Shown here in pieces: positions 3,488 through 14,174 of a DNA stretch of 64,000 nt. The stretch is taken from NCBI GenBank assembly GCA_963747325.1, contig CAVVEM010000004.1, forward strand, positions 1 through 64,000, in the 5' to 3' direction. The DNA is from an uncultured Chloroflexia bacterium (GTDB taxonomy: Bacteria; Chloroflexota; Anaerolineae; Anaerolineales; Anaerolineaceae). Position numbers and translations under genes: made by a program. The notes beneath the pieces are model-generated. The model was not told the DNA's origin. It searched no databases and worked only from the letters and a program-made list of their open reading frames with translations. Position 1 is the stretch's first letter, and the number at the start of each line of letters is the position of its first letter.

Positions 3488-5260
3488 TTGGTCAAATATA
3501 ACGGAAATAATATACCATATTCTAACGGTTTTTTGGAGTTTAAGTTGTTTTTACCTGCGACGAGAAAAGAAATGGAACAACGCGGCTGGAAACAGTGTGA
3601 TGTCATTCTGATTAGTGGTGACAGTTACATAGACAGCCCTTATATTGGTGTAGCGGTGATTGGAAAAATATTGGTCAAAGCCGGTTACCGTGTTGGGATT
3701 ATTGCCCAGCCGGATATCAGTACGGATCTGGATATCACCCGTCTTGGAGAACCCGCATTATTCTGGGGTGTCTCTGGCGGCAGCGTGGATTCGATGGTAG
3801 CCAATTATACGGCATTGAAGAAAAAACGCCACCAGGATGATTACACGCCTGGCGGTAATAATACGCGCCGGCCGGATCGTGCGGTGATTGCCTATACCAA
3901 TTTAATTCGCAAATATCATAAACAGACTGCTCCGATTGTCCTGGGCGGCATAGAGGCCAGTTTACGGCGCATCGCCCATTATGATTATTGGACGGATAAA
4001 GTCCGCGGATCGGTCTTATTTGATGCCAAAGCGGATTATCTACTTTATGGTATGGCGGAACGCTCAATTGTGGAACTGGCTGCCGCGCTGAAGCAAAAAC
4101 GATCTGTCGAAGATATTCGCGGATTGTGTTACAAATCTGATCAGGTTCCGGAAGAGTATTGGAAACTGCCAACTCTGGCGGATGTAAAGGCCGATAAAAA
4201 CAAATTCTGGCAGATGTTTGAAACCTTTTACGATCAAAACGACCCTCACACGGCCAGAGGAGTGGCTCAGCTGCACGATACGCGGTATCTAGTACAAAAC
4301 CCTCCCCAGTCCTATTTAACCCAGGTGGAGATGGATAAAATCTCCTCCCTGCCTTATGAATATGCCGTACATCCATTGGATGCCCAACAGGGAGAAGTAC
4401 GGGCGCTGGAGACAATTCGATTCTCCATTAAAACCCATCAGGGTTGTTATGGAGAATGCACCTTCTGTTCCATTGCGGTGCATGAAGGACGCACGGTGCG
4501 CTGGCGTTCGCCGGAATCGATTGTCGAGGAAGCGAAGACGATTACTGAATTGCCTGGCTTTAAAGGATATTTGCTGGACGTGGGTGGGCCGACAGCGAAT
4601 ATGTATGGTTTTGAGTGCCTGAAGAAGCTGAAGCGCGGTGCGTGCAGCGATAAATCCTGTATGTATCCGGAAATTTGCCCAACGTTAAAACCAACTCATG
4701 AGCCCTATCGGCAGCTTCTGGAGACACTTTCTAAATTACCCAAAATTAAAAAGGTTTTCGTCTCTAGCGGCATCCGTTATGATCTATTGTTTGCTGATAA
4801 GAAAGAAGGCGCTGCCTTTATGGAGAATCTGGTGAACAATCATGTTTCCGGCCAATTGAAGATTGCACCGGAACATACCGAGGAACGCATTCTCAAAAAG
4901 ATGAACAAGCCGCCTTTTGCTCAAACGATCAAGTTCAAGCAATGGTTTGATCAGCTTTCTTTGAAATATAAAAAGAAACAATTCCTGACCTATTACTTTA
5001 TCGCTGCATATCCTGGCTGCAATGAAAGAGATATGCTGGCGATGAAAAAACAGGTTTCCAAGGAATTGCGTATGACCCCGGAACAGATTCAGGTCTTCAC
5101 GCCCACACCATCCACACTGGCAACCGCCATGTATTACACGGAACTGGACGGCCCGTACGGCAATCCGATCTTTGTGGAGAAGGATATAAATCTGAAGCGC
5201 AAGCAGATGGATATCATCCTGGCTGATGATCGCAGAGGGCCAGCCAAGCGCTATGGATAA
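3488..5260 (+). CDS. ygiQ: YgiQ family (UPF0313) radical SAM protein
   Basis: 590 aa; the N-terminal DVILISGDSYIDSPYIGVAVIG and the CxxxCxxC region (CYGECTFCSIAVHEG) are typical of the YgiQ family. Confidence 0.85.
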   Translation: MVKYNGNNIPYSNGFLEFKLFLPATRKEMEQRGWKQCDVILISGDSYIDSPYIGVAVIGKILVKAGYRVGIIAQPDISTDLDITRLGEPALFWGVSGGSVDSMVANYTALKKKRHQDDYTPGGNNTRRPDRAVIAYTNLIRKYHKQTAPIVLGGIEASLRRIAHYDYWTDKVRGSVLFDAKADYLLYGMAERSIVELAAALKQKRSVEDIRGLCYKSDQVPEEYWKLPTLADVKADKNKFWQMFETFYDQNDPHTARGVAQLHDTRYLVQNPPQSYLTQVEMDKISSLPYEYAVHPLDAQQGEVRALETIRFSIKTHQGCYGECTFCSIAVHEGRTVRWRSPESIVEEAKTITELPGFKGYLLDVGGPTANMYGFECLKKLKRGACSDKSCMYPEICPTLKPTHEPYRQLLETLSKLPKIKKVFVSSGIRYDLLFADKKEGAAFMENLVNNHVSGQLKIAPEHTEERILKKMNKPPFAQTIKFKQWFDQLSLKYKKKQFLTYYFIAAYPGCNERDMLAMKKQVSKELRMTPEQIQVFTPTPSTLATAMYYTELDGPYGNPIFVEKDINLKRKQMDIILADDRRGPAKRYG

Positions 5261-9851: not shown

Positions 9852-10457
9852 TTAGAGTGGTTCTCTTACCATACACCAAATGGACAGATTGTACTTTGTA
9901 ATGGTATCACTGTGTACCAAGTAAAAGCCCATTCTTTGGTAGTAGGCAACATTTTTCTCATCATGCGTTTCCAGATAGATGGGTTTCTTCTCGATATCTG
10001 CTTTTTTCAGGATGGGTTCCATCAAGGCTGATCCAATACCAGACCGCTTCTGCTTCGGATCCACTGCGAGACCCCATAAGTAATAATGGGGTCGGTCTTG
10101 CATGATCCTTTCGTGCTGCGCCGCTCCAAATTCTTCGCATTCCATGGATTGTTTATACTTGGTAAAACCCAGCAGGAAAGGTGTCAGTAAAAAGCCGTTC
10201 TGGACATATTCCCACAAACTGATTTTTGTGTGACCAGGAGGTAATATAAATACCACGCCTGAGACTTGCGGGGTAGTGTACACTTCTCCATAGCGAAGAG
10301 CACATTTCACCACGTTACCCAGATACCAGGCAAGGTAGCGAGTGCGTCTTTTAGGGTCCGGAAAATAAAACTTAAACACAGGATAATCATAAAATGACGC
10401 AGCGATGATATTCGCAGCTTGCTTTTGTTGGCTCGGGTCCAGTTTAATGATTTCCAT
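9852..10457 (-). CDS. GNAT family N-acetyltransferase
   Basis: 201 aa; RSGIGSALMEPILKKA...YLETHDEKNVAYYQRMGF matches GNAT acetyl-CoA-binding motifs A/B. Confidence 0.75.
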   Translation of the reverse strand: MEIIKLDPSQQKQAANIIAASFYDYPVFKFYFPDPKRRTRYLAWYLGNVVKCALRYGEVYTTPQVSGVVFILPPGHTKISLWEYVQNGFLLTPFLLGFTKYKQSMECEEFGAAQHERIMQDRPHYYLWGLAVDPKQKRSGIGSALMEPILKKADIEKKPIYLETHDEKNVAYYQRMGFYLVHSDTITKYNLSIWCMVREPL

Positions 10458-10758
10458 TATCGCTATCCTTGGGTGTAATTATTCTACAGATCATATTATA
10501 ACCCGCAGAGTTTTTTGGTGGGGGGGTGAAACATATATATGGATCGGTGGATATTTGTTGTGTTGTAGAATAATCCAAATATATTTTTGCTATCTAATAA
10601 GTCGGATATTGCTCTTTTTGGTTTGGTTGGAAACTACTAATTTACCGGAAATATCATAAACCATTAAAAAACAGTATGTATGTGGCTTGCCCGGATCTGC
10701 CATGCAACCGGATTGTAGAGGCAAGTTTATATTAATGCGTCAATCGAAACCGAGTTTG

Positions 10759-11487
10759 AAAATCCCGCCCGCAACGCTGGACGAAAAATACCCTTCCATG
10801 GCAGGTGTCAAAAGTAGCTTCACCAATCAAATGTCCAATTGATTTGGCGTGAGGGCAGGTTTACAAGGTGGTGGATAGACCGACAAAATTGATCAAACCT
10901 GCCCCTACAAAAAACTATTGCGCCGAATGGGATTTTCATCAATCCTGTAAATAACATATATACACATTTTCCCTGAATTTGCCAACCCATTGAATTGGGG
11001 CGGGTTTTAATTTAATGCGCTAATCTATCAGAGGCATGAAAAACCCGCCCACAACACAGGACGGAAACTATTTTCAGCCTTGGGATTTGGTAAAAGTACC
11101 TTTGCAAATCAAATACCCAGTGTGTTTGGCGCGTGGGCAGGTTTACAAGGTGGTGGATAGACCGGCAGAATTGATCAAACCTGCCCCTACAAAAAACATT
11201 TCGCCGCATGGTTTTTTTATCAATCTAGAAAAACAATCCCGATGCGATTCAACAGGGCCTGCCAACCCATCGGATCGTAAGGGCGGGATTTAATTATTTC
11301 GCAATCTAAATCGTGTCTGAAAAACCTGCCCCCATCGCAGGACGGGATAATCATCCTGTCTTGGAAGTTGGCAAAAGTATATTCGCAACTCAAACATCTG
11401 ATTTGTTCGACGCTTGGGCAGATTTACAAAGTGTTGGATTGACCGGCAGATTTGATCAAACCTGCCCCTACAGTGGGTAAACCCAAC
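10759..11487. repeat. tandem array of three diverged ~280-bp palindrome-rich repeats (third copy truncated)
   Basis: Units start at ~10759, ~11048 and ~11320. Each has a core hairpin GGGCAGGTTT-N32-AAACCTGCCC (10853-10904, 11135-11186, 11416-11467). Unit junctions carry GGGGCGGGTTTT-N~30-AAAAACCCGCCC. Conserved blocks include caaatcaaat, tcgccgcatgg, tttatcaatc and tgccaacccat. Confidence 0.85.
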
Positions 11488-11518
11488 AAAAAAAACCGCT
11501 GACAACGTCAACGGTTTT
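11488..11518. terminator. bidirectional rho-independent terminator; T8 on the minus strand after the tRNA, T4 on the plus strand after the repeat array
   Basis: A8, stem ccgctgac/gtcaacgg with one mismatch, then TTTT. Read on the minus strand the hairpin is followed by TTTTTTTT. Confidence 0.65.
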
Positions 11519-11521
11519 GCG

Positions 11522-11597
11522 TGGTGTCCCTGCTGGGACTCGAACCCAGGCTCCCGGCTTCGGAGGCCGATACTCTATCCATCTGAGCTACAGGGAC
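11522..11597 (-). tRNA. tRNA-Arg (anticodon CCG), 76 nt, CCA encoded
   Basis: Reverse complement folds as GUCCCUG-UA-GCUC/AGAUGGAUA/GAGU-A-UCGGC/CUCCGAA/GCCGG-GAGC-CUGGG/UUCGAGU/CCCAG-CAGGGAC-A-CCA. Anticodon loop is C-U-CCG-A-A. Confidence 0.9.
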
Positions 11598-11652
11598 GAA
11601 CTGAAAAATTTTACCATGATCTGCAGGGTGTGACCAGCCTGTAAGATCAAAC

Positions 11653-12285
11653 TTATACGGGAAAGGTCAGGCTGGTGCGTTCAATGAGCACATCTTCCTG
11701 CGAAATGCCCAGCGCTTCGACCACTTCATCCGGGCGGCCGGTGGCGCTGGGTTGCATGGTCAGTTCTGTGACCAAAACCAGTTCGCCTGTTGGGGTATGC
11801 TCAACCTGAAGGTCAAGCAGCAGGGGGCGCAGGTCGTAGGTTTTACTGCGCCGTTCGCGCAGCAGTGTTGGTTGGGTTAATAATTGACTTACTTTCTCGC
11901 GTAAATCGTTCTCATCCACCACATCCAGAAAATGGATTTGATAGCGGGAGGAGAGCAAAGCGGCTTGCATGGCAGGTAAATTCAACGCAACTTCCTGAAC
12001 GTTGACGATGGGCAGCCCAGCCTGCGGGGTGATCGTCAAGCGGGAGAGCACTTCATCAACCGAAAGGTCTTCATCCAGCCAGATATCCACCATTTCAAAC
12101 ATACTGATCATGCCCAGGGGCAAAGGGGCAGCTTGATTGATCCGCGGTTGGGGGTGAAAACCCTGGGAATAGCTGATCGGCAAATTGGCACGCCGCAGCC
12201 AACGTTCCCACATTTTATGGATATCCAGATTACTGGTGAAGCGGTTGTCCTTGGTTTTATGGTAGGTTATGCGGTAGCGTTTCAT
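11653..12285 (-). CDS. TIGR03936-family (DUF2344) radical-SAM-associated protein
   Basis: Starts MKRYRITYHKT...FTSNLDIHKMWERWLRRANLPISYSQGFHPQPRI. The ATG overlaps the stop of the upstream radical SAM gene as ATGA at 12282-12285. Confidence 0.75.
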   Translation of the reverse strand: MKRYRITYHKTKDNRFTSNLDIHKMWERWLRRANLPISYSQGFHPQPRINQAAPLPLGMISMFEMVDIWLDEDLSVDEVLSRLTITPQAGLPIVNVQEVALNLPAMQAALLSSRYQIHFLDVVDENDLREKVSQLLTQPTLLRERRSKTYDLRPLLLDLQVEHTPTGELVLVTELTMQPSATGRPDEVVEALGISQEDVLIERTSLTFPV

Positions 12286-14174
12286 TCCTGCACCTCTGCG
12301 GTGACTTCGGGGCATTTCCATTTGTCGCCAGGCGTTTCCTTGCGTAATGCCGAGAACATGGGCAGGACACCGCAGGCATAGCACTGCTGACGGCAGTCCT
12401 CACGATATTCGCCGCGCTGGCTGCGTTCATATTCTTCCCAAAGGTGCGATTTGCGCACCCCGGTGTGGATATGATCCCAGGGGAAGACTTCGTCTTTATC
12501 CCGTTCGCGGGAGGAATAAAAATAGGGATCAATGCCCATCTCGGCAAAAGCGGCCTGCCAAAGATCGAAATTGAAATATTCCTTCCAGGCATCGAATTTA
12601 GCACCGTTTTTCCAGGCAATTTCAATTACATCCGCTACACGCCGGTCTCCGCGGGAGAGCCAGGCTTCGAGCAGGGTTTCTTTTTGATTACTCCAGTTCA
12701 ATTTCAATCCGGCACCGGAAAGCTCCTTGCGTAGCAGATCCTGTTTCAGCTTGATCTGTTCGGCGGTATCACAGGCGGCCCATTGGAAGGGGGTCTGAGC
12801 CTTGGGAATGAAGGTGCTGACTCCGGCTTTGATCATGACCCGTTTGCCGATGATGCGGCGGCCTTCATTGCGCACGGCTTTGCAGAGGTCAATGATAGCC
12901 TGAACATCCTCAATGGTTTCCATGGGTTGGCCGATCATGAAGTATAACTTGATCGTGGACCAGCCGCGGGTGAAGATATCTCGTACGGTTTCCAGAAGCT
13001 GTTCACTGGAGATATCCTTGTTGATGATGGCGCGCATGCGGTCACTGGCAGCTTCCGGGGCAATGGTGAAGCCGGATTTGCGTGTAGTCTTTAGTTTTTC
13101 CAGCAAATCAATGGAAAGACTCTCAATGCGCAGCGAAGGCAGCGAGATGGTCAGGTTTTTACCGGCAAATTTTTGACTGATGGTATCCACCAATTCAACA
13201 ATGTGGGTGTAATCGGAGGAGGATAAGGAGAGCAGGGAAACCTCTTCATAGCCGGTATTGGCCAGGGAAGTCTCGATGGTATGCATGATTTGTTCAACAC
13301 TTTTTTCGCGCACAGGGCGGTTGACCGCGCCGGCGTGACAGAAGCGGCAGCCGCGGCTGCATCCGCGCATGATTTCCACGGCGATGCGGTTGTGAACCAC
13401 ATCCACGGAGGGCACGATGGGTTTGATCGGTCCGCCTGGCAGATCCGGGACGAAGCGTTTTTTGATGATTGAGGGTGCGCTTTCGTTTAATTTCTTAATG
13501 GCAATCGTTTTGCCTTCTTCATCCAGACTTGGCTGATAAAGAGAAGGTACATAAACGCCCCATATCGTGGAAAGGCGAAGCAGCAATTCTTCCCGGCTTT
13601 GCCCGCTTTTACGCCAGAGATTGAGCAGTTCAATGATCTCATGGACCACTTCCTCTCCTTCACCAATCACAAAAGCATCCATAAACGGCGCCATGGGTTC
13701 CGGATTATACGAGGATTGTCCACCGGCTATAATCAAAGGGTGATCTGAGGTGCGTTGGGAAGTGCGCAAAGGGATCTGTGCCAGATCCAGCATGTTGATG
13801 GTATTGGTGTAAAGGGTTTCATAGGGCAAAGAAAACCCAATCAGATCAAAATTAGCCAGGGCGGTTTTGGATTCAAGGGAATACAGCGGGATTTGATGCG
13901 CCCGCATTAAGTCTTCCATGTCCGTCCAGGGGGCGAAAGCGCGCTCAGCAAGCGTGTCCTCGCGCTGGTTCAGGGTTTCATAGAGGATGGAGATGCCTAG
14001 ATTAGAGGTGCCGATATCATAAATATCGGGAAAAACCAGGGCAACATGGTTTGGCACACCATTCCAATCTTTTTTTATCTGATTGAGTTCCCCCCCAACA
14101 TAACGACCGGGTTTTTGAATCTGGTAAAGTTTCCGATCGAGAAAATCTTCAATTCTTTTGGCAGCGTCTACCAT
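12282..14174 (-). CDS. TIGR03960-family B12-binding-domain radical SAM protein
   Basis: 630 aa; CxxxCxxC (CSRGCRFC) radical SAM core; N-terminal B12-like domain; conserved partner of the DUF2344 gene. Confidence 0.8.
   Translation of the reverse strand: MVDAAKRIEDFLDRKLYQIQKPGRYVGGELNQIKKDWNGVPNHVALVFPDIYDIGTSNLGISILYETLNQREDTLAERAFAPWTDMEDLMRAHQIPLYSLESKTALANFDLIGFSLPYETLYTNTINMLDLAQIPLRTSQRTSDHPLIIAGGQSSYNPEPMAPFMDAFVIGEGEEVVHEIIELLNLWRKSGQSREELLLRLSTIWGVYVPSLYQPSLDEEGKTIAIKKLNESAPSIIKKRFVPDLPGGPIKPIVPSVDVVHNRIAVEIMRGCSRGCRFCHAGAVNRPVREKSVEQIMHTIETSLANTGYEEVSLLSLSSSDYTHIVELVDTISQKFAGKNLTISLPSLRIESLSIDLLEKLKTTRKSGFTIAPEAASDRMRAIINKDISSEQLLETVRDIFTRGWSTIKLYFMIGQPMETIEDVQAIIDLCKAVRNEGRRIIGKRVMIKAGVSTFIPKAQTPFQWAACDTAEQIKLKQDLLRKELSGAGLKLNWSNQKETLLEAWLSRGDRRVADVIEIAWKNGAKFDAWKEYFNFDLWQAAFAEMGIDPYFYSSRERDKDEVFPWDHIHTGVRKSHLWEEYERSQRGEYREDCRQQCYACGVLPMFSALRKETPGDKWKCPEVTAEVQE

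Follow-up and report, generated by a model that had tools for sequence, protein, structure and literature searches.

Bacterial interspersed mosaic elements (BIMEs) of E. coli are clusters of REPs in alternating orientation, joined by conserved linkers. To our knowledge, binding of IHF and gyrase to BIMEs is documented for enterobacteria only. REPs tagged with GTAG are known from Proteobacteria, Cyanobacteria, Chloroflexi and the PVC group (Di Nocera et al., 2013; PMC3733652), the Chloroflexi elements being reported from T. roseum only. They form HH dimers, with GTAG termini outside and spacers mostly of 20-100 bp, which fold separately or as one large stem-loop, and G-T pairing is frequent in their stems (PMC3733652). 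REPINs are two inverted REPs, mobilised by single-copy RAYTs (Bertels and Rainey, 2011; PMC3116915, PMC3337134).

We describe an array of inverted palindromes 3' of a tRNA gene in the genome of an Anaerolineae-type Chloroflexota, in contrast to the one Chloroflexi source of the published set. The DNA analysed, here called the window, is 64 kb long. We conclude that the array is probably a REP cluster, in which an HH dimer of GTAG-tagged repeats, about 195 bp long, has been repeated, with some 83 bp of adjoining DNA, to give three tandem copies. It lies between a GNAT acetyltransferase gene (9852-10457, minus strand) and tRNA-Arg(CCG) (11522-11597, minus strand, with a promoter-like site at 11636-11608), beyond which are DUF2344/radical-SAM genes. 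A 243-aa ORF over DUF2344 (window 11653-12384) is an over-extension; the protein on record has 210 aa and a start at 12285 that overlaps the stop of the upstream radical-SAM gene (12282-14174) by 4 nt.

The array has three direct units at about 10715-11471, spaced 282 and 281 bp from start to start, and a repeat finder resolved a 155-nt core present three times (10755-10909, 11037-11191 and 11318-11472). The cores are 72-76% identical in pairs, and mean column identity in the three-way unit alignment is 78%. Tandem Repeats Finder did not report the array because the copies are too diverged. An earlier note on this DNA had correctly counted three such units, but with periods of 289 and 272 bp, and had set the start about 45 bp too late, missing the degenerate first palindrome, beginning GTAGAGGCAAGTTT, with which unit 1 opens. 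It was right that the array ends by tRNA-Arg, whose intrinsic terminator (11492-11518, minus strand) forms the tRNA-side boundary and is itself outside the repeat. That hairpin, read earlier as a bidirectional terminator, scores on the minus strand only; its plus-strand side has just four T. The exclusion of CRISPR stands, since the whole 281-bp unit is repeated, “spacers” included; the repeat finder likewise detected no att duplication of the tRNA 3' end, and the reported lack of an integrase or transposase nearby extends to the entire 64-kb window.

Each unit, on the minus strand, is a head-out dimer of two REP-like palindromic modules (REPIN-like), with GTAG/CTAC heads facing outwards. Read on that strand, module 1 is GTAG-GGGCAGGTTT, an N32 loop and AAACCTGCCC; a middle of about 84 nt follows, then module 2, GGGCGGGTTT(TT)-N30-AAACCCGCCC or, at its end, AAAACCCGCCC, closed by (C/T)TAC, and a spacer of about 83 bp. 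In window coordinates, unit 1 (10715-10908) comprises a degenerate GGGCGGG-type module at 10715-10770 (GTAGAGGCAAGTTT ... AATCCCGCCC), a middle at 10771-10852 and a GGGCAGG-type module at 10853-10908, with arms at 10853-10862 and 10895-10904 and CTAC at 10905-10908. Unit 2 (10994-11190) has its GGGCGGG-type module at 10994-11050 (arms 10998-11008 and 11040-11050, head decayed to ATTG), its middle at 11051-11134 and its GGGCAGG-type module at 11135-11190 (arms 11135-11144 and 11177-11186, CTAC at 11187-11190), which holds an inner 22-nt palindrome, GGCAGAATTGATCAAACCTGCC, next to the head at 11164-11185. Unit 3 (11277-11471) begins with a module at 11277-11331 (GTAAGGGCGGGATT ... AAACCTGCCC) and continues through a middle at 11332-11415 to a GGGCAGG-type module at 11416-11471 (GGGCAGATTT ... 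AAACCTGCCCCTAC), all three parts on the minus strand; it had been taken for a truncated copy and does lack its trailing spacer, but both palindromes and the middle are present. The spacer between units 1 and 2 (10909-10993) is repeated along with the dimer and is 65% identical to that between units 2 and 3 (11191-11276) and 78% identical to the spacer of a related array, with units La and Lb, in Leptolinea sp. UBA5203.

The stems are 10-11 bp long and perfect or nearly so, the loops 30-32 nt and the modules 52-56 bp. A perfect 10-bp inverted repeat, claimed earlier for every unit, is found at 10853/10895 and 11135/11177 (GGGCAGGTTT-N32-AAACCTGCCC), while unit 3 has GGGCAGATTT; the second inverted pair is present at 10998/11040 as GGGCGGGTTTT-N31-AAAACCCGCCC but is imperfect in units 1 and 3. 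Before GGGCAGGTTT the minus strand reads TGTAG in window units 1 to 3 (U1-U3), CGTAG in La and TTAG in Lb, and the outer CTAC/TTAC of module 2 persists in U1, U3 and La but has decayed in U2 and Lb.

The GGGCRGGTTT half-site recurs as the earlier note had said: allowing at most one mismatch, the window contains 26 copies where 9.1 +/- 2.8 would be expected, and the array accounts for 11 of the 26. Such half-sites, twelve of them in alternating orientation, with the arms of inverted pairs starting 42-43 bp apart (10853/10895, 10998/11041), about four helical turns, are what one would expect of an iteron-like or centromere-like platform for a sequence-specific DNA-binding protein. We consider this highly improbable. 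The 32-nt loop is conserved as much as the half-sites, the immediate neighbours are not replication or partition genes, the locus is chromosomal and syntenic in relatives, and the same motif is a dispersed repeat elsewhere; nothing beyond the repeated half-sites speaks for the platform that had been suggested.

The features of the unit are instead those of GTAG-tagged REPs and REPINs. A GTAG head stands by a G+C-rich palindrome, the modules are inverted with heads outside and a spacer in the 20-100 bp range, either two hairpins or a single long one can form from the dimer, the elements are extragenic and downstream of genes, and the cluster consists of dimers repeated along with flanking DNA. 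BIMEs resemble the array in the alternation of one palindrome, the conserved linkers, the tandem reiteration and the intergenic position, and differ in having a period of tens of bp, in contrast to 281 bp here with linkers of about 84 and 83 bp. There are differences from classical REPs as well. The modules, with their conserved loops, are longer than the 20-40 bp of those elements, and in the 64-kb window there is one locus with six palindromes and no other copy, so that the high dispersed copy number which defines REP families is not seen there; nor does the window hold a RAYT gene, by tblastn with a transposase protein described below or by motif search.

Because the same motif is on all four arms, the element of about 195 bp has two possible folds. 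With two local hairpins, 94% of cells pair and the stems hardly vary; with one long hairpin joining the modules, RNAalifold gives 52 pairs and pairing in 87% of cells, which falls to 34-52% on sliding the partners. In the long hairpin, five pairs show compensatory changes, and the covariation score is 0.183 compared with 0.150 in shuffles, 1 of 500 shuffles reaching 0.183, which over five sequences is a weak signal. The units fold about equally well on both strands, the folding z of unit 2 being -2.9 for the minus and -3.9 for the plus strand, as is expected of a DNA palindrome. Most cells without a Watson-Crick pair read G.U on the minus strand, where the plus strand has A.C; in unit 3, for example, the A at 11422 gives an A.C mismatch when the plus strand is folded and a G.U pair when the minus strand is. 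This bias is a mild hint that the minus strand is the relevant one.

The loops carry two further features. In unit 2 those of both palindromes are complementary over about 8 bp (GGTCTATC / GATAGATT, 11159-11166 and 11020-11027), corresponding to alignment columns 33-40 with 167-174 plus pair 31:176, and a neighbouring C-G pair is replaced by U-A in U1 and Lb; the complementarity may be left over from an inverted duplication or may be a pairing under selection. A DnaA-box-like TATCCAC(C) lies in the conserved hairpin loop at window 11143-11159 (GGTGGTGGATAGACC, plus strand). We dropped it as a candidate DnaA box, as TATCCAC is not kept in U3 or Lb and is probably a chance occurrence.

The minus-strand hint raises the question of tandem small-RNA genes, each giving a transcript of about 150 nt from the GTAG hairpin to a terminator-like hairpin, CCGTCC..GGGCGGG-TTTTT. 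In unit 2 this hairpin with its T-run occupies 11044-11065 (minus strand), its 3' arm being one arm of the GGGCGGG-type palindrome, and the equivalent in unit 3 is at 11330-11347. The interval from GTAG hairpin to terminator-like site coincides with the conserved 155-nt core, and the GTAG module, loop included, is conserved above 4-fold degenerate sites. A weak promoter-like sequence, TTGAT[GA]-17-[AT]AT.., is conserved upstream of U1, U2 and La; in the spacer between units 1 and 2 it reads TTGATG-17-AATAGT, a weak sigma-70-like site on the minus strand just upstream of the GTAG head. NsiR1 in Nostoc is made up of tandemly repeated sRNA genes, and like the array it has tandem units with a conserved core and variable spacer and possible promoter and terminator elements. 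In the window and its relative, however, these elements are inconsistent between units, which moreover have the hallmarks of a mobile repeat: the tRNA-proximal units U3 and Lb are without the promoter-like sequence, in La and Lb the terminator hairpin is broken, and sigma-70 promoter readings are weak and vary between units on either strand. A 159-nt version of the putative RNA folds no better than shuffles (z = -0.8), unit 2 folds better on the plus strand than on the minus, and the middle of the RNA evolves at the neutral rate. Rfam gave only tRNA at gathering thresholds and, for 10400-11700 at E <= 10, only noise overlapping the tRNA besides, so the Rfam comparison proposed earlier yielded no family. 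Small-RNA genes are on this evidence unlikely. They would be compatible with a REP cluster, since the RNA could be derived from a REP and exapted, and a structured-RNA role of some kind is conceivable.

The same strand carries the open frames of 56, 65 and 73 aa that the earlier note had described, and a small-protein family of 56-73 aa had been one of its options. The 65- and 73-aa frames (U2 and U3) have CRGRFDQ[FI]CRSI[HQ]H[LF]VNLP in common, a stretch that is the translation of the hairpin conserved as DNA. Past that stretch the frame is shifted by a 1-nt indel in La and interrupted by a stop in U1, and gapped columns between orthologous units are of 1-2 nt. Variable columns by codon position number 39/66, 27/63 and 33/64, with no third-position excess, so the substitution pattern offers no support for coding. 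All unit ORFs, also concatenated, were compared with 5.8 billion protein clusters, with 0 matches at E <= 1; Pfam gave no match either, and the organism's Logan contig has no gene called within the array. The peptide reading is effectively refuted, and we give it next to no probability.

We searched other genomes for the stem of the unit. The genome-wide pattern was loose, and its matches at first looked like unrelated palindromes; they comprise at least 120 stretches, in which two repeat classes with the same stem can be told apart. One class, from Planctomycetota, Verrucomicrobia and relatives, consists of tight inverted pairs on many contigs per genome among these at least 120 matches, with the sequence GTG-GGGCAGGTTT[TC]CAACCTGCC...GGCAGGTTG[AG]AAACCTGCCCC-AC. 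The other is cyanobacterial, GTAG-GGGCAGGTTT-N34-37-AAACCTGCCCC-TAC, and some of its members form 68-74-bp tandem arrays. In Rhizonema MAGs, such arrays (L006:7130-7322, L034:3906-4183 and L062:4039-4371) hold 3-5 near-identical large-loop modules, GTAC/GTAG-GGGCAGGTTT...AAACCTGCCCC-TAC, at a period of 68-74 bp. These are single modules, in contrast to the 281-bp dimer units of the window. Tandem reiteration recurs in the GTAG large-loop repeat family.

The cyanobacterial palindromes have the same head and stem as the window (GTAGGGGCAGGTTT ... AAACCTGCCC), around loops of 34-37 nt. A profile built from the five units matched loci in Chamaesiphon over nearly its full length. Three of these (L051, L111 and L081), each at its own place in the genome, are head-out dimers. 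Those at L051 and L111 combine, like the units of the window, one CAGG-type and one CGGG-type module, with about 70-95 nt of spacer; at L081 the partner of the CAGG-type module is of the CTGG type and lies about 30 nt away. Two others, L033 and L061, are singletons. The loop and spacer sequences, in contrast, have no significant similarity to those of the window, and nhmmer, run either without the first module or on the loop by itself, found no match to the cyanobacterial elements. By these comparisons, similarity to the cyanobacterial elements beyond the stems is without significance, and homology there is unproven.

Metagenomes gave 0 matches to a first pattern; a second scan recovered a minimal form, GTAGGGGCAGGTTTgAAACCTGCCC, with its head-out dimers and expansions of the half-site, and in one assembly the repeat family is dispersed over at least six contigs. 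On three metagenome contigs (L148, L159 and L151), elements bounded by GTAG...CTAC have up to about ten copies of a 16-nt unit, (c)gtttgAAACCTGCCC, with one palindrome arm only expanded. Viral contigs yielded 15 palindromes, of which nhmmer showed none to resemble the unit, and blastn of the array against plasmids and phages found no match.

A link to a transposase is seen at two loci outside the window, in other phyla, where the head and stem identical to those of the unit adjoin Y1 (RAYT-type) genes. At L160, a 193-aa ORF that has HUH and Y motifs is immediately preceded by two large-loop copies; the ORF scores 34.6 bits against Pfam Y1_Tnp (cut-off 23), and its best NCBIfam match is the REP-associated tyrosine transposase, at 61 bits, below the model cut-off of 80. 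L056 has a homologue of this ORF with the same repeats on its flanks. The L160 ORF (reverse strand, start ATGTCTTGTGACCG) also contains an in-frame REP-like GTAGGAGCAGGTTTT-N36-AAACCTGCCCCTAT, translated as VGAGF...KPAPI (within the codons for PVGAGF...KPAPI), between the HUH motif and the C-terminal tyrosine region, and the L056 homologue (4643-4710) has a similar insert at the same position.

The flanking Y1 genes bear on whether the unit could be a MITE of a classical (DDE) insertion sequence that was later duplicated in tandem. Its length of about 195 bp, its 14-15-bp terminal inverted repeats (TGTAGGGGCRGGTTT), its long-hairpin fold and the dispersal of related elements in other genomes would all suit such an element. 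No target-site duplication is evident, however, and the internal copies of the terminal motif, together with the GTAG head, are hallmarks of REPs. Beside the at least 120 genomic matches no transposase or other protein family recurs, and the sole transposase seen next to the motif is of the Y1/RAYT type. We therefore regard a DDE-type MITE as very unlikely. Of the four explanations in the earlier note its MITE-like option nevertheless came closest, in that the units are best read as miniature non-autonomous mobile DNA, but of the REP/REPIN type, with GTAG head-out dimers; the match is thus to a known kind of mobile repeat, without the recognisable target-site duplication that the note had associated with one. 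The array is most likely REP/REPIN-like miniature mobile DNA and not a new RNA or peptide gene family, and we infer its membership in a RAYT-driven family in the window genome.

Among the genome-scan matches listed there is one true homologue of the array, in Leptolinea sp. UBA5203, as a single stretch whose two units occupy the corresponding position, flanked by tRNA-Arg and by the orthologue of a 673-aa repeat protein encoded in the window; the conservation in related genomes that the earlier note had proposed to look for is thus found at a syntenic site. The GNAT gene (9852-10457) is missing at that site (L102:745-860) and present on the Logan contig of the window organism. DNA identity between the two genomes is about 83% across the region. 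In five further, more distant relatives, which share the radical-SAM/DUF2344/tRNA-Arg synteny, the array is absent from the syntenic site; DUF2344 proteins of array-less relatives are 86% and 61-64% identical to that of the window. A further contig, that of P0001, is not long enough to extend to the array. Presence in two species and absence from five relatives argue that the array arose in the common ancestor of the two, in a variable spacer. One array-less relative (L122:6809-6949) has an unrelated tandem repeat directly 3' of the same tRNA-Arg, with a 19-nt period, a 57-nt super-period and about 2.5-6.6 copies, and the spacer 3' of tRNA-Arg seems prone to gaining repeats.

Between the genomes, units are 67-80% identical with no clean one-to-one orthology, U2 being nearest to both La and Lb, which suggests mosaic relationships among them. 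Conservation within the unit is uneven. The 56-column module of GTAG plus first palindrome, loop included, has a mean identity of 85% between genomes and 88% within; the middle of the unit is at 61-64%, the level of 4-fold degenerate sites in two flanking genes (63-65% between the genomes, the neutral level), and the gap between GTAG module and middle is significant in most pairs. A module at 85-88% beside a neutral middle is not expected of a decaying relic. Its conservation may reflect either selection, for transposase recognition or a host function, or homogenisation by conversion, and it is the one feature that could lift the locus above a relic.

We propose the following history for the REP cluster. 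In the ancestor shared by the window organism and Leptolinea sp. UBA5203, a RAYT-type single-strand DNA transposase would have inserted a dimer into the variable spacer 3' of tRNA-Arg, or the dimer would have come by transfer, and unequal recombination or slippage may later have amplified it to two or three units. By analogy with what is proposed for REP clusters, any present role of its hairpins is likely to be in transcription stops, RNA 3'-end protection or protein binding, at a place between the tRNA and neighbouring genes, and the cluster would have no gene product of its own.

A further reading, which we put forward tentatively and think rather unlikely, is that the REP array has been exapted, its 56-nt GTAG hairpin module with the 32-nt loop being under purifying selection in a lineage in which the repeat family is otherwise not proliferating. 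If so, the module would have a function as RNA or as DNA, such as that of tandem minus-strand sRNAs or of an insulator or 3'-end-protecting module downstream of tRNA-Arg, and the CAGG/CGGG heterodimer in common with Chamaesiphon would represent transfer of a REPIN across phyla.

Read as a REP cluster, the locus is removed from the candidates for a new ncRNA or peptide locus and takes its place among REP/REPIN-type repeats. It belongs with a family of large-loop GTAG palindromes, with the stem GGGCAGGTTT, that extends over Cyanobacteria, Planctomycetota, metagenomic lineages and an Anaerolineae clade and that is physically linked to Y1/RAYT genes at two loci. An isolated cluster of this family can outlast speciation with one of its modules well above the neutral level, and its persistence offers a small, testable case for the co-option of REPs by their host.
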